Positions 1-22,513 of a stretch of DNA of 64,000 nt are shown here, piece by piece (position 1 is the stretch's first letter; the number at the start of each line of letters is the position of its first letter). Where the stretch lies: sequence record NZ_CP143948.1. The stretch is one strand, 5' to 3'. This DNA comes from a plasmid. A program made the translations under genes and the position numbers. Below the pieces are notes generated by a model that was not told the origin of the DNA, did no database searches, and saw only the letters and a list, made by a program, of their open reading frames with translations.

Positions 1-374
1 ACAAGCGGTGACTGTACACATCTCCGTGTGTGTCCTGTGGACTTTCACACGTTGTTTCTACATTTTGTAGACCATATCTGTTCTGTACAGTGACTTGCCG
101 TCAGTTTCCTAACTTGACATTCGCTCCGCCGAATTCTCTGTCTCATGGACAGTAACTTCAAACTTCATAGCTATCATGCCACAGCAAGTGATATTATACA
201 TGACGTTTACAATAATTGCAATACTTTTTTCAAAAAAAATTTATTTTTTTATTTCGGATAATATTCCATTGAAAAATTACACTTTTGCACGTATATTATT
301 ATAGAAGAAACACGATTAAATGCAAGCAACGTGTAGTTTATTTTTACACGCAGATAAGAAAGGAATATAAACAT

Positions 375-1262: not shown

Positions 1263-1342
1263 TCAGTTCTAAAATAAAATCAGCCACAGTATTTCATTAT
1301 TTTCTATGAAACACTGCGGCATTTTAATGAATATGCAATATA

Positions 1343-2284
1343 TTACAATATTCTCTTTTTCTTCAATAAAATCAGTATCAGCACACATATGACAACCATA
1401 ACACCTATTATAATCATAAATCCATGTGCTGTCGTCGCAAGCGGTACCCACTTTGAGCTGACATTCATGCCATAGATTCCTGAGATAACTGTCGGAATAG
1501 CCATGATAAGTGTGATGATTGTGAGCGACTTCATGACATTGTTAAGTCTGTTGTCAATGACCGTGCTCATAAGCTCTCTGGTACCATTTATGATGTCCCT
1601 GTAAATTCCCGTCATCTCAATAGCCTGTTTATTTTCGACAATCACGTCTCCGAGAAGCTCCTTATCCTCCGGATACTGCTCAAGGCGCTTGTATCTGGTC
1701 AGTCTCTCTAACACAACTCCATTGGCACGAAGCGATGTGGCAAAGTATACGAGTGTGGATTCCAGCTCGTGAAGCGCGATCAAATCGTCCTCCTCTGTAT
1801 CCTCTCCGACTCTCTCCTCAATCTCAGTACGCATCTTGTCTATGATGCGCAGATCATTCTGATACAGTACAGATATCCTGTAAAGAATCTGGTATACAAA
1901 GCGCATCTTTTTCTTGGTGGAAAATTCCTTTACACGGTTATTTAAAAATACCTGAAGCACCGGTGTATCCTCTGTACAGACTGTCACTATCTCATCATCT
2001 GTAAGTATGATGCCAAGCGGGATTGTGGTATATGACTCCTTGTCATGCCTAGTCTCTATCGAAGGTATATCCACAAGAATCAACGTATACCCATCCTGCA
2101 GCTCTATACGAGAGCTCTCCTCTTCATCGAGTGCTGCAAGTACGTCCTCAATATCAACATTCAGTTCATCCGCTACCATCTGTCCCTCTGCTACAGAAGG
2201 GTTGACCATCTGTATCCAGGTGCCTCCCTGCAGCGTATCCAGCTCATGTATTAATTTGTCATCTGTCCTGTAAAACTTGACCAT
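1343..2284 (-). CDS. corA: Magnesium/cobalt transporter CorA
   Basis: 313 aa. C-terminal two TM helices carry the YGMNV (GMN) signature. GGGGAGG RBS precedes the ATG. Confidence 0.85.
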   Translation of the reverse strand: MVKFYRTDDKLIHELDTLQGGTWIQMVNPSVAEGQMVADELNVDIEDVLAALDEEESSRIELQDGYTLILVDIPSIETRHDKESYTTIPLGIILTDDEIVTVCTEDTPVLQVFLNNRVKEFSTKKKMRFVYQILYRISVLYQNDLRIIDKMRTEIEERVGEDTEEDDLIALHELESTLVYFATSLRANGVVLERLTRYKRLEQYPEDKELLGDVIVENKQAIEMTGIYRDIINGTRELMSTVIDNRLNNVMKSLTIITLIMAIPTVISGIYGMNVSSKWVPLATTAHGFMIIIGVMVVICVLILILLKKKRIL

Positions 2285-2369
2285 GGTGCCTCCCCGTGGC
2301 TTTTATGACACACATAATGCCACAAAATATTTTGACATCACTAACGTATTGTCTTTGAAATAAAAGATA

Positions 2370-3458
2370 TTACTTCTCAGCGTATTTCTGACTCTGGCTC
2401 TTTATAAGCTCTGCATCCTCAAAGTAATTTATCCTCATGGCGCGCTTGACCTCTGCCATTGTCTGTGCTGCAGCCTCTCTTGCTGTCTCGCTGCCCTTCC
2501 TTAGTATCTCATATACAGCCGGAATATCCTTCTCATACTCTGCTCTTCTTGCGCGGATAGGTGAAAGCTCCTCCTGCATGATGTTGTTGAGGAATTTCTT
2601 AATCTTCACATCACCAAGACCGCCCCTTGTATAGTGATCCTTAAGCTCCTGAAGGTTAGCATACTCCGGCAGATACTCCTCAAAATGTCCCGGCTTAGAG
2701 AAAGCATCAAGATATGTGAATACTGTATTGCCCTCCACGTGTCCCGGATCTGAAATCTGGATATGTGTCGGATCTGTATACATGCTCATGATTTTCTTCT
2801 TTACATCTGCCTCTGTATCTGCCAGATAGATACAGTTGCCTAATGATTTGCTCATCTTCTGTCCACCGTCTGTACCCGGAAGTCTGCAGCATGCCTCATT
2901 CTCAGGTAAAAGCACATCCGGCTCAACGAGCACCTCATCATAGATAGAATTAAACTTTCTGACAATCTCCCTGGTCTGCTCTATCATTGGGAGCTGGTCC
3001 TCTCCAACCGGAACAGTTGTAGCCTTGAAGGCAGTGATATCTGCTGCCTGGCTGATTGGATAATTGAAAAATCCAACCGGTATACTTGCCTCGAAATTTC
3101 TTAGCTTAATCTCATTCTTTACTGTAGGGTTTCTCTGAAGTCTCGATACTGTAACGAGATTTGAGTAGAAAAATGTAAGCTCAGTAAGCTCCGGTATCTG
3201 TGACTGCACAAACAGTGTAGACTTGGCCGGATCGAGTCCTGCTGAGAGGTAATCAAGTGCTACCTCTATGATATTCTGTCTGATTTTCTCAGGGTTGTCA
3301 AAATTGTCTGTGAGTGCCTGTGCATCGGCAATCATGATAAATATTTTGTCATACTCTCCTGAATTCTGAAGCTCAACTCTTCTGCGAAGTGAGCCCACGT
3401 AATGTCCTATATGGAGCCTTCCTGTTGGTCTGTCTCCTGTTAAAATAATTTTTTCCAT
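2370..3458 (-). CDS. trpS: Tryptophan--tRNA ligase
   Basis: Class I aaRS motifs: HIGH-type ([10 protein letters not shown]) and KMSKS. 362 aa. AGAGGAAT RBS. Confidence 0.9.
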
Positions 3459-3550
3459 CTCTATTATTCCTCTGCTTTAGTTCTATTATTACGATTGCAA
3501 TGTAGGTTTATTCGCCAAACCGTCTGTCTTAGCAATCGCCAGCTTTCTTT

Positions 3551-3585
3551 ATTATAACACACTGACGTGTAAAAGCCTAGGAAAA
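3551..3585 (-). promoter_or_regulatory. Candidate extended -10 promoter for trpS
   Basis: On the minus strand, TGTGTTATAAT (TGnTATAAT extended -10) lies ~100 nt upstream of the trpS ATG. The leader is too short for a T-box. Confidence 0.3.
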
Positions 3586-3601
3586 AGAACTCTCATTTTA
3601 A

Positions 3602-4081
3602 TTATTTTATAATATCTACATACTCTGCCTTTGCCGCCCTGCACAAATCATCCGGTGACAGCGTAATCTGAAGCCCAAGCCTGCCTCCGCTGACCGTGAT
3701 TTTGTCCTGCTCCTTAGCTGCCTCATGGATAAATGTAGGATACTGTTTTTTCATTCCGATTGATGTACAGCCGCCCCTTATATAGCCTGTAACCTTTGTC
3801 AAATCCTTGAGATGCAGCATCTCTATGGATTTCTCGCCTGCTGCCTTTGCGGCTTTTTTGAAATCAATTTCGTCATCTATCGGTACCACAAACACATAGT
3901 ATCCACCGCTTTTGCCGACTGTCGTGATAGTCTTGTACATGCCTGCGTGGTCAAGCCCCAGCTTGTCTGCTATCTGAGCTGCATCCACAAAGTCATCGCA
4001 CTCGTATGTGCGTGCCTCATATGGAATCTTCATTGTTTCCAGTATTCTTATTGCATTTGTCTTTGCTTCTTTTTTTCCCAT
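3602..4081 (-). CDS. ybaK: Cys-tRNA(Pro)/Cys-tRNA(Cys) deacylase YbaK/EbsC
   Basis: 159 aa YbaK-family trans-editing domain. GGAGGAAAG RBS. Confidence 0.8.
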   Translation of the reverse strand: MGKKEAKTNAIRILETMKIPYEARTYECDDFVDAAQIADKLGLDHAGMYKTITTVGKSGGYYVFVVPIDDEIDFKKAAKAAGEKSIEMLHLKDLTKVTGYIRGGCTSIGMKKQYPTFIHEAAKEQDKITVSGGRLGLQITLSPDDLCRAAKAEYVDIIK

Positions 4082-4143
4082 TATACTATCTTTCCTCCAA
4101 TAAGCTTAAGATATATTCCATATCTTTATGCAATTACCTCATT

Positions 4144-6225
4144 TTACTGATTGTCCGCACTCTTATCGGCATTTTTGTATGCTTCCTCAAAGAACTGCTC
4201 CTGCGAATCTATCGGTGTGCTGTTTATCTTTCTGTCCACATACTCACCATCGGCGCAAAGCTCCTTGCCCTTCTCGTCATCTGTCATGATTGTATCGAAG
4301 ATATGGCGGATCTTGTCCTTAGCATGTGCATCGTATACCGGTGTTGCAACCTCCACACGTCTTACGGTATTTCTGGTCATAAAATCTGCTGACGCAATGT
4401 AAATCTTCTCATCATCGCCCACACCAAATCTGTATATACGTGAATGCTCAAGATATCTTCCTACAACACTTATTACAGTGATGTTTTCTGTGGCTCCCTC
4501 AACCTGCGGCTTCACACAGCATATTCCTCTGACAATAAGCTCTACCTTCACGCCTGCCTGAGAAGCATCGATAAGCTTGTCTATAAGCACCTTATCAGTG
4601 AGAGAGTTAATCTTAACTCCGATGTATGCCGGTTTTCCTGCATTCTTATTGGCAATCTGCTCATCAATCATGTCAACAATCTTATTCTGCAGGCATTTTG
4701 GGGCAACAAGCAGATGTTTTACATCTCCGTCCGAAACAGTCTCACCTCTCTGAAGCGCCATAAACACCCTTGATGCATCTGCTCCAATCTCCTGATTTGC
4801 AGTGATGAGGGATAAATCTGTATAAAGACGCGAGGTCTTCTCGTTGTAGTTTCCTGTACCAATCTGAGTGATGTACTCAAAGCCATCGCCCTTTTTCTTT
4901 GTGATGAGGCAGAGCTTTGAGTGTACCTTGTAATCACCGAGTCCGTAAAGTATCTGACAGCCTGCGTCCTCAAGGCGGTGTGACATCTCTATGTTGTTAG
5001 CCTCATCAAACCTCGCTCTGAGCTCGACAAGCACGATAACTTCCTTGCCGTTTTCTGCAGCCTCTATAAGTGCATCGATAATCTGGCTCTTGTCTGCCAC
5101 TCTGTATAGTGTCATCTTGATAGAAACTACATCAGGATCCTCTGCTGCATCGTTAAGCATCTTGATAAACGGCTTCATGCTCTCAAACGGATATGAAAGA
5201 AGCACGTCCTTTTTCTCAACCTGTCCAAGTATACTCTCCTTGAGCGAAAGCTCAGGTGTGTCACGCGGTGTACGCTTCTCAAAGAAAAGCTCCTGCTTAT
5301 CCCGCAGATAGTGCTGAAGCTGGAATACGAATGACATATCAAGCGGTGTTTTTACACTGATAAAATGCTTTTTGCCAATCTCAAGGAAGCTCGAGAGCTC
5401 GTCAATCGCCTTGCGGTTGATTTTTCTTGATAGCTCAACTCTTACAGGGTCAAGACGCACTCTCTTCTTGATGAGCTCCTCCATCATGTTACGATAATCC
5501 ATATCCTCATCATACATGCTCTGCGCATCGATATCCGCATTACGTGTCACACGCATGATTGATTTCTCACGGATTACATACTTTGGATAGAGCTTGGATA
5601 CAAAGTGTAAAATAAGCTCCTCTGACAGCATAAATGTGCCCGGTCTTGTAGGTATCTCGATAAGACGTTTGAATACGCTGTTTGAGCATGGCACGATACC
5701 TGTCTTTTTCTTACCCTTCTGCGTGGTTAAAAGCACTACCGCATAGAGCTGTTTATTGGCAAGGAATGGGAACGGCTGCTGCTTTCCTATAATCATCGGA
5801 GAGAGGAAAGGTGCAATGTGTGCATCAAAATATGCCTCCAGCAAATCTCCCTCATCCTTTGACAGCTTGTTGAAATTGATTATGCGCACGCCCTTTGGCT
5901 CAAGCTCACCCATGAGCTGCTCGTAAATCCTTGCTTTTTTCTTCTCAAGCTCGCATACTCTGTCAAGGATTGCCGATACCTGTTCCTCACTCGACATCTT
6001 TGTCTTGTTCTCGAAAATCTTTTCCTTTGAATTCATCTGCATCATGAGTGATCCTACTCTTACCATGAAAAACTCATCCAGATTTGTCTGGTAGATTGAT
6101 GCAAAGGTCAGTCTCTCTGCAAGCGGTACTCTTGGATTGCCCGCCTCATTTAATACTCGCTCATTGAACTGTAACCATGACAGCTCCCTGTTTGTGTAAA
6201 CTTCTTCCAGTTTTTTCATCTGCAT
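4144..6225 (-). CDS. ppk: Polyphosphate kinase 1
   Basis: The ORF track extends to 6429. The conserved PPK1 N-terminus (YTNRELSWLQFNERVL) begins at MQMKK, which follows an AGGAG RBS, so the start is placed at 6225. PPK1 middle and C-terminal domains are present. Confidence 0.88.
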   Translation of the reverse strand: MQMKKLEEVYTNRELSWLQFNERVLNEAGNPRVPLAERLTFASIYQTNLDEFFMVRVGSLMMQMNSKEKIFENKTKMSSEEQVSAILDRVCELEKKKARIYEQLMGELEPKGVRIINFNKLSKDEGDLLEAYFDAHIAPFLSPMIIGKQQPFPFLANKQLYAVVLLTTQKGKKKTGIVPCSNSVFKRLIEIPTRPGTFMLSEELILHFVSKLYPKYVIREKSIMRVTRNADIDAQSMYDEDMDYRNMMEELIKKRVRLDPVRVELSRKINRKAIDELSSFLEIGKKHFISVKTPLDMSFVFQLQHYLRDKQELFFEKRTPRDTPELSLKESILGQVEKKDVLLSYPFESMKPFIKMLNDAAEDPDVVSIKMTLYRVADKSQIIDALIEAAENGKEVIVLVELRARFDEANNIEMSHRLEDAGCQILYGLGDYKVHSKLCLITKKKGDGFEYITQIGTGNYNEKTSRLYTDLSLITANQEIGADASRVFMALQRGETVSDGDVKHLLVAPKCLQNKIVDMIDEQIANKNAGKPAYIGVKINSLTDKVLIDKLIDASQAGVKVELIVRGICCVKPQVEGATENITVISVVGRYLEHSRIYRFGVGDDEKIYIASADFMTRNTVRRVEVATPVYDAHAKDKIRHIFDTIMTDDEKGKELCADGEYVDRKINSTPIDSQEQFFEEAYKNADKSADNQ

Positions 6226-6421
6226 ATATGCTCCTATTCTATATGATATTTTTCCATTCGCATCCGCGTCTTTTAAGTTCGTTTTATTTTGTGCCCGCTG
6301 TATTTCAAGCAGCCTTGCCCGCTCTATCAGTTTATCCTCACGGCGTCTCCTTCTGTCTGCCAGATGAAGCTTTTTTTCCACCCCGACAAGCAGCCTCGCA
6401 AGTGCCTTCAAAACTCTTTCC

Positions 6422-6631
6422 CTATGCAATATTTACCTCTCCGTTGATATCATCTGATAATATTCCAATTCTCGCTATACCGCACAGCACATAATGCTTC
6501 TGCAATGTCCGTGCACTCTTAAGTTCATTTTCGATATTTTTGCCTTTTTTGTCAATACATTCATGCAAATTTACAAACATTTCTTCAACGATATCAGCAC
6601 ATCTGAGTGTTTCCTTTGCAGCAAGCTGCAT
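6422..6631 (-). CDS. Small hypothetical protein upstream of ppk (69 aa)
   Basis: ORF with AAAGAGGTG RBS-like sequence. No recognisable domain. Could be spurious. Confidence 0.2.
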   Translation of the reverse strand: MQLAAKETLRCADIVEEMFVNLHECIDKKGKNIENELKSARTLQKHYVLCGIARIGILSDDINGEVNIA

Positions 6632-6945
6632 TACCACCTCTTTGACGCATTTTTATATGAATTAAGGCCGTCCACATTGGTAGTTTGTACCTCTTGTGAA
6701 CAGCCTGTTATCATCGTTGCCATCATTCCTATGACGACCGCTTTCTTTGGTAATTTCTTTTTCAACATAATTAATCTCTCCATTAGCATGATAAATTATT
6801 AAAATTAATCAATAACTATTCAACAAGTTAATGGTATCAAGCTAATGTAAAGTCCAAAACGCAGTTATGTAAAATCATGGTAAAAACTTTACATTTCTTT
6901 ATTCAGCTTTACATAAATTAATTTTGTGTGCATTTTATATATCTT

Positions 6946-7689
6946 TTAGGCATTTTTAACTATTTCAACAGCAATATCCGGATAATTTGTGATAATTGCA
7001 TCTGCTTCTGCCTTGACAAGTGCCTTCATCTCATGCTTTTCGTTTACAGTCCATACATGAGCTCTAAGTCCTCTTCCGTGCGCCTTGTCAATGTAGTTTT
7101 CATCCTGCATATGGTAGGTTGCCGGATGAAGCGCATCCACATGAAGCTCGCTTGCATACTCTGCCGGATTTACTATAATGTCAGAAAAAAGCAGACCGCA
7201 CCTCATATCGGGGCAAAGCTTTTTCATGCGCACAATCGACTCATGATTGAATGATGAGCACCAGATTCTGTCAAGCATATCATACTCTTCCACGAGCGCC
7301 AGTACCTTTTTCTCCAGATTTTTGTACTGTACGATACCGTTTTTAAGCTCGATATTTATGGTCATCTCTGTGTTTTTGAGCAGGTCAAACACCTCATCGA
7401 GTGTTGGAATGCGAGTCTTCTTGTCATAGGACGGCATGTGCTTTGACACATTGAGGCGCTTTAACTCCTTGAGTGTATAGTCCTTTACAAAGCCTTTCTC
7501 ACCACTCACTCTGTCCACGGTCTCATCGTGTATGACCACAAGCTCTCCATCCTTTGTGAGCTGCACATCAAGCTCCACGCCGTCAGCCTTCATCTTTTCT
7601 GCCTTCTTGAATGCCTCAAGTGTGTTCTCCGGTGCATATCCGGATGCTCCTCTGTGTGCCCAGACCTTTGTTCCCTCTGTGTTTATCAT
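6946..7689 (-). CDS. Glycerophosphodiester phosphodiesterase
   Basis: GDPD motifs VWAHRGASGYAPENTLEAF and ELDVQLTKDGELVVIHDETVDR. Confidence 0.85.
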   Translation of the reverse strand: MINTEGTKVWAHRGASGYAPENTLEAFKKAEKMKADGVELDVQLTKDGELVVIHDETVDRVSGEKGFVKDYTLKELKRLNVSKHMPSYDKKTRIPTLDEVFDLLKNTEMTINIELKNGIVQYKNLEKKVLALVEEYDMLDRIWCSSFNHESIVRMKKLCPDMRCGLLFSDIIVNPAEYASELHVDALHPATYHMQDENYIDKAHGRGLRAHVWTVNEKHEMKALVKAEADAIITNYPDIAVEIVKNA

Positions 7690-7719
7690 GCTTTAAGCCT
7701 TCTTTCGTTACTTTTTATT

Positions 7720-9114
7720 TTAGTTATTTTCATGCCTCGGTGCATCATATCTGTCTGCAAACCTTAAAAATACAAATCCCACTGCAAAGAATATTGCCAT
7801 AGTTGCAACCGCCACATTTATCGTGCCGCCCGCAAGCTTTACTGCTGCTATGACAAGCGAGCCTAAAAACGAAGCTCCCTTTGCAAAAATATCATAGATT
7901 CCGAAATACTCTCCCGAGTTCTCAGGAGGAATAATCTTTGAAAAATATGAGCGTGACAGCGCCTGCAATGAGCCCTGGAAGCAGCCCACACCAAATGCCA
8001 TGATTCCAAAGCCAATCAGATCATGCAGTGTAAGTGCATATAGACAGACTGCAAAATATCCCGCAATGCAGACATACAAAAGCGTTGTAGTTTTGTATGT
8101 CTGTGACAGTCTTCCAAAAACAAGTGAACCGATGCATGCCACTATCTGTGTAAAAAGTAAAAACACTACCTGTCCCACTGAATCGAGCTTTAAATCAGTT
8201 CCTATGTTTATACAATTATCTATTATAGTACCTACACCATCTATGTAAAGGAAAAAAGCAACCAAAAACAGTCCTACTTTTTTATCTTTTGTAGCTATTT
8301 TTTTGATTGTTCCAAAAATCTGTGCAAATGCGTCAGCTATAAGTCTTAGGACTCCCGGATTTTTGTTTGTTTTGTTTTTCTCTTTGATATTGTCTCTTAT
8401 AAATGCATCATTTTCAAAATTCTTATGAATATCTTTGTCTGCTGCATCCGATACATAATTCACCTGTTTATAGCTCTTAAACAATGGAATTGTAACAACA
8501 AACCACCAGATTCCTGTAACCGCAAAGCCTATTATCATCGACAGGCGGTTTGATATATATCCAAGCATATCAGGTCCACAGATATACGCTGCAAGCGAAA
8601 CGAGAAACGGCACACATGAGCCCAGATATCCCCAGGCATAGCCGTAGGAGGACACCTCGTCCATTCTATCCTTTGTCGTCACATCGACAAGCATCGAGTC
8701 ATAAAACACCAGCGATGCATTGTAAAATATCTTTGTAAGCACATATATAACAAGAAACAGTACCCACGTAGGTGTAAAACCGTTAAGTATACATGCCGAC
8801 ACTCCTACAACTACTGTCGTTGAAAAAATGGCCTTTTTGATACGCATATGGTCAGCTATCGCGCCACATACAGGTCCGATAAGTGCTGATACAACCGTCA
8901 TCACAGCTATCGCCACCGCATAATACGCAGTCGCCCTGTCAGATGAAATCTGCCCTACACCATCTCCCACGGCAAGGCTTTTGTACCATATCGGTATGAG
9001 TGCACACGCAAGCAGTGTGTATGCGGAATTTCCCACGTCATATAATACCCATGAGAGCTCCTTTGACGAGAGCTTTTTGCTTTTCTTTTGTGTATTGTCT
9101 TCTTTTGATTTCAT
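7720..9114 (-). CDS. MFS transporter
   Basis: 464 aa with ~12 predicted hydrophobic helices and a central cytoplasmic loop. Sits downstream of the GDPD gene. Confidence 0.7.
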   Translation of the reverse strand: MKSKEDNTQKKSKKLSSKELSWVLYDVGNSAYTLLACALIPIWYKSLAVGDGVGQISSDRATAYYAVAIAVMTVVSALIGPVCGAIADHMRIKKAIFSTTVVVGVSACILNGFTPTWVLFLVIYVLTKIFYNASLVFYDSMLVDVTTKDRMDEVSSYGYAWGYLGSCVPFLVSLAAYICGPDMLGYISNRLSMIIGFAVTGIWWFVVTIPLFKSYKQVNYVSDAADKDIHKNFENDAFIRDNIKEKNKTNKNPGVLRLIADAFAQIFGTIKKIATKDKKVGLFLVAFFLYIDGVGTIIDNCINIGTDLKLDSVGQVVFLLFTQIVACIGSLVFGRLSQTYKTTTLLYVCIAGYFAVCLYALTLHDLIGFGIMAFGVGCFQGSLQALSRSYFSKIIPPENSGEYFGIYDIFAKGASFLGSLVIAAVKLAGGTINVAVATMAIFFAVGFVFLRFADRYDAPRHENN

Positions 9115-9220
9115 AAATTATACCTTCCCTGTTTATATGTCCCAGACTATGATTTTATTTTAAATATGTAAAAACCGCTACCGTCCATTTGTAAAGTTTA
9201 TGTAAGCAATCCGAACAATA

Positions 9221-9685
9221 TTATGCCAGCGACTTTCTCGCAATATCCACATAATGCATGGCGTTTCGATGATTCTCCTCTATCTCCTCAGCACTCAGTG
9301 ACCTGACTACCTTTGCCGGAGAGCCAAATGCAAGGCTTCCGTCAGGAATCTCGGTGCCCTGAGTGACAAGAGCGCCCGCACCTATTATGCAGTTTTTACC
9401 AATCCTTGCTCCATTTAACACGATGGCACCCATGCCGATGAGTGTATTATCACCTATAGTACACCCGTGAACAATTGCGCTGTGTCCTATTGTCACATTA
9501 TCACCGATTCTGACACTGTGGCTTAAGTCCACATGTACCACTGCATTGTCCTGTATATTCGAATTTCTGCCTATTTCTATCGGTTCTGAATCGCCTCTTA
9601 CAGTTGCATTATACCATACGCTTGCTCCGTCAGCCATTGTCACCTGACCCTTAACAACGGCACCTTCTGCTATATAATATGCCAT
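9221..9685 (-). CDS. Gamma carbonic anhydrase family / hexapeptide-repeat (LbH) protein
   Basis: 154 aa with repeated [LIV]G-x4 hexapeptides (YrdA/PaaY/CaiE-like). Its ATG lies 2 nt after the jetC-like TAG stop. The GGAGGG RBS sits inside the upstream gene, so translation is coupled. Confidence 0.8.
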   Translation of the reverse strand: MAYYIAEGAVVKGQVTMADGASVWYNATVRGDSEPIEIGRNSNIQDNAVVHVDLSHSVRIGDNVTIGHSAIVHGCTIGDNTLIGMGAIVLNGARIGKNCIIGAGALVTQGTEIPDGSLAFGSPAKVVRSLSAEEIEENHRNAMHYVDIARKSLA

Positions 9686-9687
9686 AT

Positions 9688-12600
9688 CTATCCCTCCATC
9701 AATTTCAGATAATCGCCCTTGTCTATATGCATCATAGAAATCTGATTATTATGCCGCCTGAAGCCATAGACACAGTCCACATTTCGGATAAGCGACTGCA
9801 GACGTTCATCCGGTACACAGACAATCAGCTGCAAGTCCATCTTCCTTGCATACTTGAGACACACCGCACTTCGCTCCTGATCCATCTTGGAAAATGCCTC
9901 ATCCAGAAGCACCAGCTTAATCTTTGAATCACGATTGCTCTGCTGCATATAAAGCATCGCAAAGCCCGCAAGAAGCGCAACGTACTTAGGGTTCTGTCCC
10001 TCGCCGCCCGAATCACGTCCTGCCATGTCATCTACAAAGTTTTCCCTGATGACACGGCCGTTTTCGTCCGTAACCTGCTCATACATGCTGAATGACAGAT
10101 AATTGCGGTAATCCGCATACTGCTCCATTTCCTTGCGCTTCTGCATTCGCAGATGCTCATCCTCGTCCCTTGGCGGCATGAACTTGTCTGTCAAAAGTTT
10201 AATTTTCTGCTCATATTTCTTATAAAAATCATCCTCACCAAAGCTTATCTGTCCAGCTATTCCGCCATTATCCGGATTTTTACTGTCCAGTTCTTCCGCC
10301 ATAAGCATATCATAGAACTGACCGTTTTCGTTCTTTGCCGGCTCTATCTTAATCTGATAGGTACTGTCTGAGAAATTAGTCTCCCTAAGAAGCCTGTTTA
10401 TCTCATAGGCATGGCGCTTTGCAGCCTTGATATCACCATGAATTGTACCGATGACATTCTCTCTGAGACTTTTGTAAATCACCTTGCACTGCTCCTCAAA
10501 CTCACTCTCATATTCCGGCTCATAATCCTTCTCGTACTTCTCCAGCAGCTCCTCATATGCCTTATTTGACTTCTCGGCTCCGCTGAACTGACCTGACGGA
10601 AACTCCTTTATATACCTGTAGCGGGCAGTCTGCAACGTCTCCACACACGACTGCTGCCTGCCACCATTTCCGTCTGCGCCTTGCAGCTCAATAAGCTTCT
10701 CACGCTGTTTGCTCTTGACCGATGCTCCTGAGCTATGCTGCAGCATATCCTGAACCTGCTTCTCAAGCTCCTCTCTGGCAACATAGCCCTGTAACATATC
10801 TTCCAGCTGTGCTCTTCGCTGTTCGTTTGCACCTATGATTTTCTCATGCTGGCTTATCTTTTCATTTATCTGCTGCTGATTCAGTGAAAAAGCGCTCTTA
10901 AGTGCATCGATGTTTTTCTCAAGAAGCCTCTTTTTCTCCTTTAGCTCCTTGTACTGCCCATTCTCCATTGTCCTAATAATCTCTTCGAGCTCATTTTTCT
11001 GCGAATTAACTGCTTTAAGCTCATCTGACGCCTCAGAAAGGCCCACAAAATACTCCGGCTCCCCCTTTAAGCACTCAAAATCTCTCTGTGCCTTGAGACT
11101 TGAAATAATACCCATAAGCTGTATCTGGTCCTTCTCAAGCCTCTCCACATCTGCCTCATACTCAGCAAGTCTTGCCTTGGATACCCTGCCTCCGATGCAG
11201 GCATTTGTAGTATAATCGCGCTTCTTCAGATGTCTGAAAATAAAGTTGCTGTATGAGTAGCAGTCCGGTGTAACTCCATCTCGTACCTGCTCAAGCTCGT
11301 CAACACTCCGGCACTTTATAATATGTCCCAGATATCTTTTCAGGCAGACATCTACATACTTTTCCTTTGTATCCACCGCCTCATAAAGCGAACCATCCAT
11401 GGCCTTTGGTTCACTGTCCATGATAGCCTTGGAATTGATGAGGTCAACATCCTCAAACTGCTTCATATCCCTGAAAATAACAGCAGCAGTATGCGCATAA
11501 CGCGGCTCTGTGATAAGTGAGAACTTGAGCCTGCCCATACGTCCTTCTATGGCATTCTTCCATTCCTCGTCCTGTACGTCAAACATATCCGCAAATACCT
11601 GTACCTTCACAGGCTCGCCAAATCTATCACTTAAGTCTCTCTGCAGCGTAGCTCTTGCCGAACGCAGGCTCTCACTGTATGACTTGCGGTTGTTCTTCAT
11701 ATCATCGACCAGACGTTTTTTCTCTTTAAGCTCTTTTGTTATCTCATTTTTCTGCGAATTATTGTCCTCGAGCTCATCCTCGATATCCTTCTTTATAGAC
11801 TCAAGCTTTAGATGAAGCTCCTGACATTTTGCCTCTGTGACGTCACCATCCACAATCTCTTCAATAAGGTTTAAAACTGCATTGCTCACATAATCTGTGA
11901 TGACCTCATCCTCATCCCAGGCCTTTAGTCCGTTTGTGATTTTAATCCACTGACGGCTGTTGTCGGTAAGCATGAGACTTCTCTTCTCAAGCTCCCTAAG
12001 CTGATCCTTTTTGCTTCCTAAGTCGCTCGATTTCAAATCTGCACATACCTGGATATACTCCTGCTGCAGATTCGCCTGCTGCCCGGCTATATCATCTGCC
12101 TTTTCTGAAAGCCTGCCCTGTTCTTCTTCGATACGCTTTTTATCATCCTCAGCTGCCTGAATCCTTGCACGCATATCCTCGATATCTATGCACCTGATCA
12201 TTGTCTCTGCCATGACAATATCGCTCTGGATATTTACCAGTTCCTGCCCTGACTCCTTTATTTCCTTAAGAAGCTCAATACGCTTGCGCATATCCTCTAT
12301 TTTTTCCCTGATTTGTCTGTATGCATCAAGCTGCTCACTGATAGTCTCTATCGTGCCCGAGTCACTCTTTGGAAACATATAATCGCGTATAAACTGGCCT
12401 GTTCCATTTGTCATTCTGAGTGCAATAGCACTTTTTTCCATTGTGATAAAACGATTCGGGTCAATATATCCTAAAATCACATCATATAATGTGCCAAGGT
12501 ATGCCTCCTTCGATGCGTAAATACGGTTTACATCCCCTCTGGCGCGTCTGTCAGCTGACTGTGAGCGAGTATTTACAAGCTTTTTAATATCATTATTTGA

Positions 12601-17480: not shown

Positions 17481-18005
17481 TTACATTTCTCTTTTAGCTT
17501 CTACCTTTGTTGCATATTTCCACGTCTTTCCGCAATCTTTTGAATAGATACTTTCCCAACTAAATGTATCCTTCTCAATATTTTTGAAATTCCATTGCCA
17601 TATAGTTGTATCATTCGCATCTTTATTAATCCCTGTTTGTATAATATCATTCTCCAATTCTTCGGCGATTAACCTATCAACACTCCATTTGGAAACGTAC
17701 ACTATATTCCACTTTTTTGAATTATCTATCATTGGAACTCGTATTGTTGTTCCATAATCTCCGTATAAAGTATCTTCCTCTGTCCATTCTCCTCTTTTGG
17801 GACAAATGAAGACATCTTGAATTCCATACCCATCCATGACATATGAAAAAAGCCACTCACCTTCTTTTGTATCTTCAATCTTCCCCTCTTCATCATATGT
17901 AGTCATTGTAAACGACCAATTTCCAACAAATCTACTATACAATGATAAATCTGTGTTATTATTCGCATTATTGCTTCCTAATGCTTCTAAAAATTCATTT
18001 TTCAT
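17481..18005 (-). CDS. Hypothetical protein (Trp-rich, AT-rich gene)
   Basis: 174 aa with no recognisable domain. GC content is lower than neighbouring genes. Confidence 0.45.
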   Translation of the reverse strand: MKNEFLEALGSNNANNNTDLSLYSRFVGNWSFTMTTYDEEGKIEDTKEGEWLFSYVMDGYGIQDVFICPKRGEWTEEDTLYGDYGTTIRVPMIDNSKKWNIVYVSKWSVDRLIAEELENDIIQTGINKDANDTTIWQWNFKNIEKDTFSWESIYSKDCGKTWKYATKVEAKREM

Positions 18006-18038: not shown

Positions 18039-18560
18039 TTATTTATCATTTGTAGTAATTGAATAAACAACCAAATCCCTATATTCCCCTGTGTTTTTAT
18101 CAATTCTTCTTTTTCTTAAAACCCCATCCTTAATAAAACCTACCTTTTCAAGCAGATTAAGCGAAGGTTTATTATCTATATTACATTTTGCCTCAATGAG
18201 ATACAGTCTATCTTTTGACAAGTATTCTGAAATCATCTTTTTTACAGCTTCAGTGCCATAACCTTTACCATGCCACTTTTCACCAATAACATAACCAATT
18301 TCACCAATCCTTAATTCTTGATATGGTATATCAAAAGATATATATCCTATACATGCACCACTTTCTTTTTCAACAATTACCCATGCATTCGTATTTTTCA
18401 CCATAGCATTTACAAAAGAATTCATCTGATCCATATTCATTGGATATCCCATTATAAAATCACCCAAATGCTCATCTGTCCCCCATCCCTCGAAGCATAT
18501 TGAAGCATCTTCATTCACAAAATGGCGGATGTATAATCGCTCTGTTTCTATTTTCATCAT
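18039..18560 (-). CDS. GNAT family N-acetyltransferase
   Basis: 173 aa with acetyl-CoA binding motif (KWHGKGYGTEAVKKMI) typical of the RimJ/RimL-like GNAT fold. Confidence 0.8.
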   Translation of the reverse strand: MMKIETERLYIRHFVNEDASICFEGWGTDEHLGDFIMGYPMNMDQMNSFVNAMVKNTNAWVIVEKESGACIGYISFDIPYQELRIGEIGYVIGEKWHGKGYGTEAVKKMISEYLSKDRLYLIEAKCNIDNKPSLNLLEKVGFIKDGVLRKRRIDKNTGEYRDLVVYSITTNDK

Positions 18561-18637: not shown

Positions 18638-18672
18638 AAAAAAGGGTTTCCGAGAAATCTCGGAAACCCTTG
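18638..18672 (-). terminator. Rho-independent terminator downstream of the displaced tuf 3-prime fragment
   Basis: GGGTTTCCGAG-aaat-CTCGGAAACCC stem followed by a T6 run on the minus strand. Confidence 0.45.
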
Positions 18673-18705
18673 AATTTACTAGATATTTACACTACTAACA
18701 AGTAA

Positions 18706-18759
18706 TTACTCGATAACTGTAGCAACACGTCCAGAACCTACTGTACGTCCACCCTCACG
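18706..18759 (-). repeat. Direct repeat (left copy): orphan duplicate of the last 17 codons plus stop of tuf
   Basis: 54 bp, 53/54 identical to 22460..22513, same orientation. The single difference (GGA to GGT) is synonymous. Encodes [17 protein letters not shown]. Confidence 0.85.
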
Positions 18760-18862
18760 ATACTTTAATATCATTTTACCTCATATTTTTTATGGTTTTC
18801 TCTCCAAAATACAGTGAAAAACGACTGATTTGTACTATTTATTTTTATTTGCCTGATTTCTT

Positions 18863-18879
18863 GGCACCGTTTTGGCACC
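18863..18879 (+). repeat. GGCACC-N5-GGCACC 17-bp motif (left copy)
   Basis: Exact 17-mer GGCACCGTTTTGGCACC, also present at 22248..22264. Confidence 0.7.
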
Positions 18880-18979
18880 GGAAGCCTCAGTCAAAAAGCT
18901 TCTCTTCTGCTGTTTATACTCTTCTCTATCAGCTTTAATTTATAGCCAAAAAGCAGCCAGTTTTTCATATAAATAATTT

Positions 18980-20239
18980 CTAATAACTTTTATCGCCTTT
19001 CTTCAAAGGAGAAAACGTAATCTTATTTGCCAAAAGAAAAAGAATTATTATTACAATACCAAATCCCACAAAAAGTGAACTTGTATCAACAACAGTAACT
19101 TTGTATATAATACTAATCACAAAAGATACCACTGGCGCGCATGCGTATGTAAGTGAAAATCGAATTGCAGAAACACGTCCTATATATTCTTTAGTAACTT
19201 CTTTTACAAATTTCACTTGTACATAAGTAATCATTAATCCCAATGCTGCACCAATTATTATCGAACCGATTAGCAACAGTAATTTTTGAGTTATAGGATT
19301 TGCAATATATTTTGAAACAAATGCAATAAAAACATAGTATACACCTAAAACAATTCCACAAAATGTAACAAGTGTATTATTTTTTTTCTCCTCTTTCATT
19401 TTTGCAAAAGTCAATGATCCCAAAATAGTACCAATAGTTACGCTTACACTTAGTAATGAAACAATTTTGGCATCTCCACTAAACATTTCTCTTGCAATCG
19501 GGGCGAGCAGTGCATCAAATGGAACCACTGCTGAATTAATTAGAATACATAAAAAACATAGTTTTAATAGCTTCTTATGGTCAAATACATAACTAAATCC
19601 ATCTCTAAGCGAAATTAAATATTCTCTGCCAATTATTCGGTTTGTCTTCTTTTCTTCTTGAACAGAAAATTCTATTTTTACTATAAGCAACGCTGATATT
19701 AAAAATATCAAAGCATCTATCGCTAAAGAAATACCTATTCCAAATGAACTAATCACTATGCCTGACAAGCCAGTTCCAACTAATACTGCTATTTTGGTAC
19801 AAGACACATTGACACTTACACCTTTATCATAATGTTCATTAGGAAGTACATGCTGAATAACTGCTACCCCTGCTGGCATATGAAATGCTTCTATTAATGA
19901 AATGGATATTGTCATAAAAACCAATATTAATGGTGAAAGCATGTTTTGTGTATATACATATAATATATACAAAACTAACAGAACTCGAGCTATATCTGAA
20001 AGTACTAACACTTTCTTTTTATTCATATTCTCGACTAATGGACCTATAAATGGTTGAATAATTACAGAAGTAGCTTGATTAATACCAAAAATAATCGCAG
20101 ACCACCCTGCACTATTTGTAAGTAAATATACCAACCATGTAAAAAGTATTGTATCTAATGAATCACCACAGCGGTTAATAATATTAGAAGTCAGCAGATA
20201 AACATAATTGTGGTTATGATATAACTCATGTTTATTCAT
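18980..20239 (-). CDS. MFS transporter (putative RiPP exporter)
   Basis: ~12 predicted TM helices. Start taken at ATG 20239 (MNKHELYH), after an AGAGAGG RBS. An upstream ATG at 20260 overlaps the rSAM stop (ATGA). Confidence 0.7.
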   Translation of the reverse strand: MNKHELYHNHNYVYLLTSNIINRCGDSLDTILFTWLVYLLTNSAGWSAIIFGINQATSVIIQPFIGPLVENMNKKKVLVLSDIARVLLVLYILYVYTQNMLSPLILVFMTISISLIEAFHMPAGVAVIQHVLPNEHYDKGVSVNVSCTKIAVLVGTGLSGIVISSFGIGISLAIDALIFLISALLIVKIEFSVQEEKKTNRIIGREYLISLRDGFSYVFDHKKLLKLCFLCILINSAVVPFDALLAPIAREMFSGDAKIVSLLSVSVTIGTILGSLTFAKMKEEKKNNTLVTFCGIVLGVYYVFIAFVSKYIANPITQKLLLLIGSIIIGAALGLMITYVQVKFVKEVTKEYIGRVSAIRFSLTYACAPVVSFVISIIYKVTVVDTSSLFVGFGIVIIILFLLANKITFSPLKKGDKSY

Positions 20240-20256
20240 ATTTGTTACCTCTCTAA

Positions 20257-21411
20257 TCATAATTTAGATTGTTTAATTTCGCAAGCTATCTTATAAAGAT
20301 CCTGATGTTTTAAAGCCGCTGCTTTTTCTATAACATTATCAATTTCTGATATATCATTAAGTGATTCCAAATATTTTTTCCATTTTTTCATTTCAACATT
20401 ATATGCACAGTATCTATTTTCACTTTCAAATGAGCCGTTAATGCAATAACGACTATTACTACATCCTCCTAAGCATCGTTCTGTATAACGACATTCTCTG
20501 CAAAATCCTTTTAACTTACTACTATCAAAATTTCTATTCCACTTAAAAGAGTCCGGACTTTCCCAAATCGACTTTAAAGATTTTTCACGAATATTTCCCG
20601 CTACTAATGTTTTATCTCTAATAGAAGTACAAGCAACAATATCTCCATTATGCAGAATACCAATTACATGCTTTCCTGCTCCACAACCTGTCCAAGACCA
20701 ATTATCATTAAGAAAATTCTCATTTACTTTTATATCTTTATTGCTATAATAACCTATGCAATCTGCCAAAACAATTAACAACTTACCTCCAATTTTATTA
20801 TATGCAAAATCAATAATAGAAAGAATATCTTGAGGTTCTATAAGCCATTCTGGGCGTTTTGCAAAATTCCCCATTGGTAATGCAATCTGTAACTGCCAAC
20901 TATTAACTCCCAAATCACTTAATAATTGATATAGTTCTTCCAATTCACATATATTTTCTTTATTTATTGAAGTTATTACTGATGTCGAAATATTATTTTT
21001 TCTTAATTCTTTCAATGCTTTAATACTTTTATTGAATGATCCCGATCTCCGTATAAAATCGTGAGTTTTTTCAAGACCATCAATACTTAAACAGACACTT
21101 CTAATTCCTGATGTTATCGCATTATGAATAAAGTTTTCATCAATCAACCAACCATTTGTAATAATACTTGTTATTATGCCATTATCTACTAATCTTTTCG
21201 CAATAATATGCCAGTCACTACGTGTCGTAGGTTCCCCTCCAGATAATGTAATAACTTTTAATCCCAAATCTTTTAATTGGTCACACACCTCAAGAGCTTC
21301 TGATGTATTCAACTCATCGGGTAGCGCTTCTGCACAACTTGAACCGCAATGTTTACAACGCATATTACAACCCATTGTTATTTCCCATACAGCTGTAGTT
21401 AATTTATTCAT
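20257..21411 (-). CDS. Radical SAM / SPASM-domain peptide-modifying enzyme
   Basis: CNMRCKHCG (CxxxCxxC) cluster, GGEP motif and a C-terminal Cys-rich SPASM region (CGAGKH...CRECRYTERCLGGCSNSRYC). 384 aa. AGGAGAG RBS. Confidence 0.85.
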   Translation of the reverse strand: MNKLTTAVWEITMGCNMRCKHCGSSCAEALPDELNTSEALEVCDQLKDLGLKVITLSGGEPTTRSDWHIIAKRLVDNGIITSIITNGWLIDENFIHNAITSGIRSVCLSIDGLEKTHDFIRRSGSFNKSIKALKELRKNNISTSVITSINKENICELEELYQLLSDLGVNSWQLQIALPMGNFAKRPEWLIEPQDILSIIDFAYNKIGGKLLIVLADCIGYYSNKDIKVNENFLNDNWSWTGCGAGKHVIGILHNGDIVACTSIRDKTLVAGNIREKSLKSIWESPDSFKWNRNFDSSKLKGFCRECRYTERCLGGCSNSRYCINGSFESENRYCAYNVEMKKWKKYLESLNDISEIDNVIEKAAALKHQDLYKIACEIKQSKL

Positions 21412-21492
21412 ATATTCTCTCCTATAATCCTTTTTAAATAAAAAAGACCTACTCTATATTTCTTTTTACATAGAGCAAGTCTTTTCTACAAA

Positions 21493-21600
21493 CTACATTC
21501 TCACACCTGTTCCGTACATAACTGGTCCAAATAAGTTCTTAGAGGTTTTTAATTCAGAAATCTTTACAAACTCCAAGCTCAATTCTTCAAGATTAAACAT
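21493..21600 (-). CDS. Candidate RiPP precursor peptide (35 aa, no Cys): MFNLEELSLEFVKISELKTSKNLFGPVMYGTGVRM
   Basis: Strong GGGAGGTG RBS 7 nt upstream of ATG 21600. A TTGACA-17-TATTCT promoter-like sequence lies inside the longer ORF-track call (21493..21699), so that call is over-extended. Sits immediately upstream of the rSAM gene with a hairpin plus T-run between them. Confidence 0.5.
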   Translation of the reverse strand: MFNLEELSLEFVKISELKTSKNLFGPVMYGTGVRM

Positions 21601-21757
21601 TTTTATCCACCTCCCGTTTATTGAATTTATCTTAAGAATACATCTCTTATTTTCAAATGTCAAGTTATTTTCATTATTTTTCCCAAATTTCGAGTTCAAA
21701 TTCTCGTTTTATTTGTAACATATTTTCCATTTTCTACGCATACATCAGATCTCTTAA

Positions 21758-22201
21758 CCACTTATAAATGTCCGTAAAATTGCAAAAGCAACTGGAATCA
21801 GTGCTACAACCTTATATTCAATCATTCAAAAAGATTCCAATATTCGATTTGATTTTGCTTTAAGACTTGCAAACGAATTGCAAATTGATGTGAATGAGAT
21901 ATGTTCTGCCAGTCCATTTTCTGACACAATTAAGGAAGAAGAGATTTATCCTACACTTCCAGACGGTTTGAACGGAGCCTTAGACGCAAGTCGTGTAAAG
22001 ACTTACTTAAAAAATTCTATGTATCCGTTGATGTATCTTTTTGGCAAAAATAGTATGCCTGATGTAGATAATCTACTTACATCATTCTATCAGCTTGATG
22101 ATGAAGCCAGACAGGAAGTTGTAGAAACAATCCGTCTGAAACTGCAATATCATCGAGATCCGAAACGTGCTGAACAGATCAAGCAGATTAAAGGTTGGTA
22201 A
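21758..22201 (+). CDS. XRE-family HTH regulator (start unresolved; possible N-terminal truncation or frameshift)
   Basis: Clear helix-turn-helix reading IAKATGISATTLYSIIQKDSNIRFDFALRLANEL in frame with ORF 21878..22201. No ATG/GTG/TTG is found between the in-frame stop at 21755 and the TTG at 21878. Divergent from the precursor gene. Confidence 0.4.
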   Translation, partial: PLINVRKIAKATGISATTLYSIIQKDSNIRFDFALRLANELQIDVNEICSASPFSDTIKEEEIYPTLPDGLNGALDASRVKTYLKNSMYPLMYLFGKNSMPDVDNLLTSFYQLDDEARQEVVETIRLKLQYHRDPKRAEQIKQIKGW

Positions 22202-22205
22202 AAAA

Positions 22206-22247
22206 TCACTCCTGTGAATGGCAAACATTCGCAGGAGTTTCTTTTTG
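22206..22247 (+). terminator. Terminator after the HTH gene
   Basis: CTCCTG...GCAGGAG stem followed by TTTCTTTTT. Confidence 0.4.
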
Positions 22248-22264
22248 GGCACCGTTTTGGCACC
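22248..22264 (+). repeat. GGCACC-N5-GGCACC 17-bp motif (right copy)
   Basis: Exact copy of 18863..18879. Confidence 0.7.
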
Positions 22265-22370
22265 ACTGGTCTTATTTTTCAATTTTAAATTTATCTGTAT
22301 TTTATCTTGCTGATAAATATTTCGCTATTTCTCTACTTATAATTTTTCAAATCATTCTCTCTTTAAGATA

Positions 22371-22401
22371 CAGAAAAACCCGTAGAACCGAAGTTCTACG
22401 G
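22371..22401 (-). terminator. tuf rho-independent terminator
   Basis: CCCGTAGAAC-cgaa-GTTCTACGGG stem followed by a U5 run on the minus strand, ~60 nt after the tuf stop. Confidence 0.6.
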
Positions 22402-22459
22402 GTATCTTACGTTTAGACACAACGTTATCTTACGATAACAAATCCATATTAAGATTGTA

Positions 22460-22513
22460 TTACTCGATAACTGTAGCAACACGTCCAGATCCTACTGTAC
22501 GTCCACCCTCACG
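22460..22513 (-). repeat. Direct repeat (right copy) = 3-prime end of intact tuf
   Basis: See 18706..18759. Confidence 0.85.

Follow-up and report, generated by a model that had tools for sequence, protein, structure and literature searches.

The 64,000-nucleotide stretch of sequence record NZ_CP143948.1 analyzed here (hereafter, the window) carries a compact cassette of three genes, which encode a 35-amino-acid (aa) peptide, a radical S-adenosylmethionine (SAM) enzyme with a SPASM domain and a transporter of the major facilitator superfamily (MFS) (Table 1). A preliminary description of this DNA had proposed that the set is a cassette for a peptide that is made on ribosomes and modified after translation (RiPP), made up of precursor, maturase and exporter, and this proposal stood up, as the gene set was found to be conserved in seven versions. 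The host is Agathobacter rectalis (Eubacterium rectale), as judged from the EF-Tu of the window, which is labelled 'MULTISPECIES Agathobacter', and from its RpoC, which is A. rectalis WP_306785057.1. The MFS protein is, by exact-sequence match, WP_012741308.1 of A. rectalis ATCC 33656.

The translated precursor contains neither cysteine nor tryptophan and matched no Pfam or NCBIfam model. It consists of a leader, approximately residues 1–23 (EEL-x-x-EFV-x-ISELK), followed by a conserved core, F24-G-P-V-M28-Y29-G30-T-G-V-R-M35, in which M28-Y29-G30 is the predicted splice site. The Cys- and Trp-free open reading frame (ORF), the near-perfect ribosome-binding site in front of it and a TTGACA-17-TATTCT promoter of its own had all been pointed out previously and were found again here. 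This promoter would drive the cassette; across the region, promoter-like sites were not enriched (15 found vs. 19.7 expected). The list of ORFs also includes a 68-aa version of the small ORF beginning with a TTG at 21,699. The 35-aa reading was preferred because this TTG is located upstream of the predicted promoter and because the orthologous peptides are 30–35 aa long.

Directly after the precursor stop codon, the transcript could fold into a stable hairpin (z = −8.4; none of 200 shuffled sequences was as stable), which is followed by a U-run, UUUUUUAUUU. Two of the diverged cassettes described below (L001 and L014) also have a hairpin and U-run in the equivalent spacer between peptide and enzyme genes, with unrelated sequences, which argues for an attenuator-like element that is conserved in function rather than in sequence. 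In agreement with the read-through suggested in the preliminary description, this element is a probable attenuator that would set a high ratio of peptide to enzyme.

The radical SAM enzyme shows the SAM-cluster motif C15-x3-C19-x2-C22, a GGEP motif at residues 58–61 and the full seven-Cys SPASM pattern (C243, C261, C304, C307, C313, C317 and C335), and it matched the Pfam families Radical_SAM (9e-28) and SPASM (3.5e-11), so that the motifs and domains reported earlier for this 384-aa protein were confirmed. With the SAM-cluster motif starting at residue 15, it lacks an N-terminal extension, and it also lacks a C-terminal tetratricopeptide repeat (TPR) domain. An AlphaFold2 (AF2) model (mean confidence score, pLDDT, 83.7) shows three C-terminal helices in addition to a partial TIM barrel and the SPASM domain, and the SAM-cluster motif is not preceded by an N-terminal domain. 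Its closest folds in the PDB are PqqE, SkfB, the anaerobic sulfatase-maturating enzyme (anSME) and SuiB, generic SPASM/twitch neighbours with 16–22% identity. The coupling of the MFS gene that had been claimed was also borne out: its start overlaps the stop of the enzyme gene by 4 nt (ATGA), and its product matched MFS_1/MFS_3. A radical SAM protein identical to that of the window occurs on at least 1000 contigs, and the corresponding 90% cluster has 2132 members. The identical protein is labelled 'MULTISPECIES [Bacillota]' and bears the UniRef name 'anaerobic sulfatase-maturating enzyme homolog YdeM'.

Table 1. Features of the cassette and of the insert that carries it (positions in the window).
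Feature	Position	Strand	Basis or remark
MFS transporter, 426 aa, predicted product exporter	18980–20260	minus	MFS_1/MFS_3, H+ antiporter-2 type
Radical SAM/SPASM enzyme, 384 aa, predicted tyramine splicease	20257–21411	minus	Pfam, NCBIfam, AF2
Hairpin and U-run, intrinsic-terminator-like, between precursor and enzyme genes	21438–21489	minus	−28.8 kcal/mol
Precursor peptide gene, 35 aa, MFNLEELSLEFVKISELKTSKNLFGPVMYGTGVRM	21493–21600	minus	ORF translation; seven orthologous peptides
Ribosome-binding site, GGGAGGTG	21608–21615	minus	7 nt 5' of precursor ATG, read off the DNA
Sigma-70-like promoter, TTGACA-17-TATTCT	21635–21663	minus	10/12 match; top site in 18700–22500
Divergent ORF, 5'-truncated XRE-type helix-turn-helix (HTH)	21758–22201	plus	HTH_3 profile positions 13–54/55, 22 bits (cut-off 23)
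Direct repeat copy 1: last 17 codons and stop of tuf, insert boundary	22459–22513		Completes the real tuf
Direct repeat copy 2: orphan tuf 3' fragment, other insert boundary	18705–18759		54/55 identical to copy 1

Conservation of the cassette in diverged loci

Diverged precursors were collected by look-ups centred on the enzyme, the 35-mer being too short as a query; a search with the 68-aa extended ORF returned only near-identical copies and over-long ORF calls. In this way, seven diverged cassettes were assembled (the window and loci L001, L014, L091, L092, L093 and L094), each with peptide, radical SAM enzyme and MFS transporter. The six other enzymes are 59–64% identical to that of the window and lie in different genomic contexts. 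In every one of these six, an ORF of 30–35 aa precedes the enzyme gene and an orthologous MFS gene (45–52% identity) follows it. The precursors read MFNLEELSLEFVKISELKTSKNLFGPVMYGTGVRM in the window, MERFDMEFEEFVNVEELKNSEDAFGPVMYGTGVRV in L001, MEVQNIFDEYVPVEALEKPVTSFGPVMYGTATRD in L014, MKELKNFVESFVSLSDLKKSKNSFGPVMYGIITRL in L091, MEIEQFVSVEDLKDSTESFGPVMYGTGVRA in L092, MAFEEFVDVEELKTSQNSFGPVMYGTGMRL in L093 and MDFEEFVDVEELKTSQTSFGPVMYGTGMRV in L094.

The heptapeptide FGPVMYG and an Arg at position −2 are invariant in all seven peptides (FGPVMYG-x-x-x-R-x), and none of the seven contains Cys. Codons of the core vary synonymously among the cassettes (TTT/TTC, GGA/GGT/GGC, CCA/CCC/CCT, GTT/GTA/GTG, TAC/TAT and AGA/AGG/CGT), and purifying selection thus acts on the precursor core. 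The leaders have diverged, keeping an acidic E-F-V-x-[VIL]-[SE]-[EDA]-L-[KE] pattern. Because seven diverged cassettes keep an invariant core through synonymous codon changes, the small ORF is a genuine gene under selection, far beyond chance. A doubt voiced in the preliminary description, namely that the small ORF might not be kept beside homologous enzyme genes, is answered by its retention in all seven. The gene set and its conservation are established by these comparisons, and we hold it to be very probable that the three genes form a RiPP cassette.

Two further observations were made on the diverged loci. In L001, a metagenome scaffold (positions 2936–9847), two PGA_cap paralogues enclose a 61%-identical cassette beside rplJ-rplL-rpoB, and that of the window lies after fusA-tuf, downstream of rpoB-rpoC, so that the two occupy different sites among ribosomal and RNA-polymerase genes. 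In L091, a divergent gene on the minus strand (1993–2280) adjoins the FGPVMYG cassette and encodes a 95-aa Nif11-domain peptide with a GG motif (…ETVSGG|YNPRSSSGAYMTMAE…), possibly an additional substrate, possibly the precursor of an unrelated RiPP.

Family relationships, neighbouring peptides and predicted reaction

The radical SAM enzyme of the window reached no curated NCBIfam cut-off. Its best match, near full length, was TIGR04103, 'nif11-class peptide radical SAM maturase 3' (235 bits, 1.2e-69), followed by TIGR03913, 'GDL motif peptide-associated maturase' (225 bits), and then by TIGR04133 and AhbD at about 180 bits. The equivalog cut-offs are 725 bits for TIGR04103 and 591.75 bits for TIGR03913. 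The same ranking of TIGR04103 before TIGR03913 was obtained for four other members of the clade, and clade members scored 219–249 bits against TIGR04103. Models of crosslinking and thioether-forming RiPP maturases gave at most 143 bits on the window enzyme (WgkB 122, DynA 77 and PqqE 98). The partners typical of TIGR04103 were not found at the locus: the precursor has no Nif11 or NHLP match, and the overlapping enzyme and MFS genes have no small ORF between them or after them. With regard to TIGR03913, the precursor lacks a GDL motif.

Spliceases, that is, PlpX and its relatives, are radical SAM/SPASM enzymes; acting on the Tyr of an XYG motif, they cut out a tyramine equivalent (C8H9NO) (PMC10533398; PMC11414181; PMC11626197). 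Native splice sites include MYG and LYG in the substrates of PlpXY (PMC10533398), in PcpA (PMC11414181) and in RcsA and RasA (PMC11626197). PlpX belongs to IPR026482, the substrates are Nif11/NHLP precursors and a small Y protein takes part (PMC11002830). According to two sources, YG-rich neighbours of PlpX-like enzymes occur in 189 genera, 27 enzyme-substrate pairs have been verified, and most of these are binary and Y-less, with a leader helix that binds the enzyme (PMC10849128; PMC11414181). The mining by Scott et al. 2022 relied on richness in YG beside the enzyme, according to the summary in PMC10849128. The absence of an N-terminal extension in the window enzyme fits binary, Y-less spliceases with direct binding of the leader helix (PMC11414181).

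Database searches retrieved a clade of 1161 related proteins at E ≤ 1e-10, with 221 genome loci. Most members are approximately 500 aa long, carry a C-terminal TPR domain and are 45–57% identical to the window enzyme, with many invariant residues in common; the seven enzymes of the FGPVMYG cassettes, that of the window included, are short, lack the TPR domain and make up a subclade of their own. In 80 of the genome loci, 26.9% of the Tyr residues encoded in nearby small ORFs on the same strand preceded a Gly or Ala, compared to 8.7% of those in control ORFs from the same loci (Fisher p = 8e-30), and 61 of the 80 had a nearby small ORF with such a site. Pseudobacteroides cellulosolvens encodes an 85-mer with five PLYGI units and, at a second locus, seven KYG/MYG units, while several metagenome-assembled genomes of Bacillota have peptides with 3–5 PLYG or KYG units beside clade enzymes. 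In [Clostridium] polysaccharolyticum, four AYA peptides lie beside an ABC exporter with a C39 peptidase domain. Syntrophomonas, Pelotomaculum and Desulforamulus encode NHLP-type leaders of about 110 aa that end in GG and precede a single AYGV, AYAV or MYAV site, and these loci also carry Nif11-type peptides.

Sites with Ala, Ser or Asp instead of Gly after the Tyr (AYA, RYA, LYS and LYD) were seen at L016 and L007 ([Clostridium] polysaccharolyticum), L047, L053 and L089; the enzymes next to them either accept non-Gly sites or perform a different reaction.

As proxies for verified spliceases, annotated TIGR04103 and TIGR03913 members on plasmids were inspected. On a Nostoc plasmid, the neighbours of a TIGR04103 gene are a Nif11 precursor with the ending ...IAGG|RGSIALYGLPPELF and, downstream, a 71-aa protein, an arrangement that corresponds to the type-I A/X/Y layout. 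In Azospirillum, three DUF1843 peptides are encoded ahead of a TIGR03913 gene; ...RMLYGG is the start of one and ...IKPYGV that of another. Both the homology of the enzyme with splicease-associated families and the X-Y-[G/A] enrichment around its clade are established, and three features expected of a spliceotide locus were found: an enzyme homologous to PlpX-type spliceases, an XYG motif in the adjacent precursor and YG-rich peptides beside relatives of the enzyme. As all three related clades neighbour XYG peptides, a splicease acting on M28-Y29-G30 is the most economical reading. From sequence, we therefore regard it as reasonably probable, if well short of certain, that the locus is a compact, TPR-less, MFS-linked spliceotide cassette whose enzyme would excise tyramine.

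For such a cassette we infer a reaction, a leader removal, an export step and a bioactivity. The promoter would drive the 35-aa precursor, and the hairpin and U-run would let only some transcripts pass into the coupled enzyme and MFS genes. The radical SAM/SPASM enzyme would bind the short, acidic and presumably helical leader (EEL..EFV.ISELK) directly, with no separate RiPP recognition element (RRE) or Y protein. By means of a 5'-deoxyadenosyl radical, Tyr29 of the invariant M28-Y29-G30 would then lose the tyramine equivalent (C8H9NO, −135.07 Da), and the Met28 carbonyl would be joined to the former Tyr carbonyl, giving an alpha-keto-beta-methionine (akbM, a ketoamide) in ...FGPV-[akbM]-GTGVRM. 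Computed masses would change from 4007.061 to 3871.993 for the full peptide and from 1409.713 to 1274.644 for the tryptic peptide NLFGPVMYGTGVR. A protease from outside the cassette would remove the leader, and the MFS pump would export the small product. By analogy, this product might act as a covalent-reversible inhibitor of serine or cysteine proteases, which is the default guess for its activity, given the inhibition of serine and cysteine proteases by those spliceotide ketoamides that have been tested (PMC11626197; PMC9811515).

Several points weigh against tyramine excision. The scores lie far below the equivalog cut-offs (235 vs. 725 and 225 vs. 592 bits), and identity to annotated TIGR04103 and TIGR03913 members is only 32–35% (32.5% to the Nostoc TIGR04103 protein). 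It is taken as background, in keeping with the A/X/Y context in Nostoc and with the placing of PlpX in IPR026482 (PMC11002830), that TIGR04103 corresponds to the PlpX splicease family (IPR026482), and we know of no characterised member of the clade to which the window enzyme belongs. The chemistry is deduced from sequence rather than from a product, and the solved structures closest to the model do not discriminate between reactions. The cassette includes no leader protease gene and the precursor no Gly-Gly site. Further, Y-A, Y-S and Y-D have no record as splice sites in the accessible splicease literature, and the residue after Y-G/A is often β-branched (T, I or V), which would also suit a three-residue cyclophane. 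A limited literature search for radical SAM RiPPs of rectale/rectalis or for gut spliceotides found nothing relevant.

Given the identity of only 32–35%, the relatives with Y-A, Y-S and Y-D sites and the frequent β-branched residue at +2, the enzyme could instead catalyze a different Tyr-centred reaction and tie the Tyr into a C-C or C-O crosslink (for example, a three-residue cyclophane across Y-G-T), or form a bond to the conserved Arg; it would then found a new class of radical SAM RiPPs (RaS-RiPPs). An invariant aromatic residue with a β-branched residue two positions on (YGT, YGI, YAV) in many clade members would suit this chemistry, the enzyme falls below the curated cut-off of every named family, and the crosslinking enzymes SuiB and PqqE are among the closest solved folds. 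On the other hand, the crosslinking RaS-RiPP models score much lower than TIGR04103 and TIGR03913, an extension is lacking at the N-terminal position where SuiB has one, X-Y-G is exactly the splicease motif and occurs in tandem (PLYG five times) as in YG-rich spliceotide precursors, and the NHLP and Nif11 leaders of the relatives match spliceotide clusters. We consider a new crosslink class unlikely, and equally doubtful the broader version in which the FGPVMYG clade, and perhaps the whole TPR clade, which accepts Y-A, would carry out an undescribed Tyr-centred radical transformation (e.g., a cyclophane from Tyr to a β-branched residue, or a Tyr-Arg link). The preliminary description had favoured a new class with a new Tyr crosslink; this does not sit well with the MYG of the core, with top matches to two families that are both found beside XYG peptides, or with the Y-G/A enrichment beside the enzyme's own clade. 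Its RiPP-cassette proposal was right and its new crosslink class probably wrong.

A modification that alters the mass little or not at all, for instance L-to-D epimerisation as performed by YydG/EpeE (SPASM-type radical SAM enzymes whose substrates are short peptides), here on what would be an envelope-stress or signalling peptide, would agree with the short precursor, the small enzyme and the transporter, and EpeE does appear among the structural neighbours; however, it ranks there at 28–49, a weaker match than PqqE, SkfB, anSME and SuiB, no epimerase family is among the top NCBIfam matches, and the clade-wide Y-G/A enrichment would be left unexplained, which makes this very improbable. Less probable still, to the point that we give it hardly any weight, is that the locus does not make a RiPP at all, the enzyme being an anaerobic sulfatase maturase, YdeM-like or cofactor-maturing enzyme and the small ORF incidental. 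The UniRef name would suit this, as would the AhbD and NirJ models with E-values down to 1e-52. Set against it are the scores obtained with TIGR03942, the anSME model (78 bits vs. a cut-off of 349), and with AhbD (179 vs. 500), the retention of the small ORF with synonymous variation in seven cassettes, and the C39-peptidase ABC exporters and double-glycine leaders that adjoin the relatives. Neither a sulfatase nor haem genes were found among the neighbouring ORFs identified (MFS, a GNAT acetyltransferase, a 174-aa protein without a Pfam match, tuf and fusA). Both the anSME, which the preliminary description had singled out as the competing identity if a cognate sulfatase lay nearby, and a haem enzyme of the AhbD/NirJ type were rejected on these grounds.

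Other RiPP maturases were likewise rejected. The mycofactocin maturase MftC (TIGR03962) scored 136 bits vs. a cut-off of 265, and the precursor Tyr lies seven residues from the C-terminus, not in a terminal Val-Tyr. A sactipeptide or ranthipeptide maturase would need Cys, which all seven precursors lack, and StsB gave 143 bits against a cut-off of 625. PQQ, WgkB and DynA assignments were dismissed on scores far below the curated cut-offs and unmet substrate requirements, and a streptide-type Lys-Trp cyclase on the lack of Trp in the precursor, the missing N-terminal domain and a SuiB match of only E = 8e-8. The earlier statement that the peptide, having no Cys or Trp, is not a sactipeptide, ranthipeptide, streptide or darobactin therefore holds.

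Genomic setting and mobility

The ORF divergent from the cassette had been described as a divergently transcribed regulator. It was found to be a 5'-truncated remnant and not an evident intact regulator: a stop codon lies 11 codons upstream of the part that matches the HTH profile, no in-frame ATG, GTG or TTG precedes the HTH, and gene callers start the ORF after the HTH (103–107 aa).

The HTH remnant and the cassette lie together in an insert (18,760–22,458; 3754 bp from start to start) bracketed by 55-bp direct repeats of the tuf 3' end, after which the terminators differ (copy 2 terminator stem, 18,644–18,669). GC content is 30–33% across 17.2–22.2 kb, compared to 40–48% in the flanks. No integrase was found inside the insert, and Rfam and tRNA scans of it found nothing. 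These repeats are in line with a small circular unit having entered the tuf 3' end through a tuf-like segment by Campbell-type insertion.

In Gallintestinimicrobium propionicum (L011), a 99%-identical HTH-cassette unit occupies a different locus, which lacks a tuf gene, and is bracketed by perfect 144-bp repeats that consist of the tuf fragment and the first terminator. In Blautia caecimuris DSM 29492 (L013, NZ_JANJZT010000047.1, 163–6800), the cassette is 99.3% identical over 3072 bp; identity begins at window position 21,771, at the truncated 5' end of the HTH gene, and the cassette lies directly after genes for a Mob_Pre relaxase and an AAA_25/RepA-like protein and ends in a tuf-3'-like fragment. 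The arrangement in Blautia suggests that a mobilisable element has recently carried the cassette from one genus of Lachnospiraceae to another. A search of the cassette DNA against plasmids gave no match.

Beyond repeat copy 2, the segment 17,380–18,704 of the window (GC about 33%) encodes a GNAT acetyltransferase (18,039–18,560) and the 174-aa protein without a Pfam match (17,481–18,005). It is replaced by other genes in the close contigs L005, L011 and L012, and the region downstream of tuf appears to be a hotspot at which insertions vary between strains.

Compared to the 2132-member cluster that holds the intact, identical enzyme, lesions were found elsewhere in radical SAM proteins with 99–100% identity (lesion proteins P0004, P0009 and P0010). 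A 144-bp in-frame deletion between 19-bp repeats (residues 163–210; window 20,782–20,906), found in 464 sequences, removes the invariant WQxQ..PMG; a deletion of 118 residues (51–168) in 260 sequences removes GGEP; and 60 sequences are truncated near residue 257. The G. propionicum enzyme has a stop at E41 (L011:4121–4123), codon 41 being GAG in the window, TAG in L011 and GGG in L013, and frameshifted precursor variants also occur. As the cassette is both mobile and frequently inactivated, it is a dispensable accessory trait that varies between strains.

Significance and comparison with characterized systems

With a 35-aa peptide, one enzyme and one pump, the cassette is near minimal for systems of this kind, and its host is a cultivable and dominant gut commensal. 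What makes the locus of interest is mainly this host, together with its minimal architecture, its invariant core and the prospect of finding a native spliceotide product. If a secreted alpha-keto-beta-methionine peptide is indeed made, the gut would receive a ketoamide protease inhibitor that is gene-encoded, and the cassette would be a tractable system in which to study the native product, the leader protease and the target. The strictly invariant seven-residue core argues for one specific molecular target. Being strain-variable, the cassette could be correlated with phenotypes in metagenomes. Should another Tyr chemistry turn out to be at work, a new RaS-RiPP class would come from one of the most abundant human gut commensals.

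Streptide biosynthesis (StrA/StrB/StrC; SuiB structure 5v1q) likewise combines a short precursor, a radical SAM/SPASM enzyme and a transporter in a Firmicute. The preliminary description had placed the cassette under this architecture, headed by a divergent regulator. Its three-gene layout was upheld, whereas a SuiB-like N-terminal domain and an intact regulator were not, the HTH being truncated. SuiB has an N-terminal leader-binding RRE domain, where the window enzyme has no extension; SuiB is matched only weakly (E = 8e-8 by sequence, 18–20% identity by fold), there is no Rgg/SHP-type regulator and, as the window precursor has no Trp, a Lys-Trp crosslink is impossible.

The best-scoring curated family is that of the type I spliceases of Pleurocapsa, PlpX/PlpY/PlpA and PcpXYA (TIGR04103/IPR026482), whose native sites include MYG. 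These enzymes and that of the window are both of the SPASM type with no N-terminal extension. The window enzyme differs in scoring below the 725-bit cut-off, and its cassette in having no Y protein, no Nif11/NHLP leader and no co-clustered epimerase. Closer in gene content are the binary systems of Rheinheimera, RhaX/RhaA, RcsX/RcsA and RasX/RasA (PMC11414181; PMC11626197), which likewise consist of one radical SAM/SPASM enzyme and one XYG precursor (MYG in RcsA) and have no separate RRE protein, a helical leader being presumed to bind the enzyme. Compared with these by description, the window precursor is only 35 aa long and has a single site and no Cys pair, and the cassette is mobile, relies on MFS export without a protease and resides in a Gram-positive gut anaerobe.

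The TPR enzymes of the clade itself (P. cellulosolvens, [Clostridium] polysaccharolyticum and Syntrophomonas) have catalytic and SPASM domains that are 45–57% identical to those of the window enzyme, with the same invariant residues. Their precursors share with the window type an EF-x-x-VSE-like leader motif and have X-Y-G/A cores; unlike the window precursor, they are 45–130 aa long, with Gly-Gly or NHLP leaders and often 2–7 repeated sites, and their exporters are C39-peptidase ABC proteins. In contrast, the window subclade has lost the TPR domain and combines an MFS pump with one fixed FGPVMYG core.

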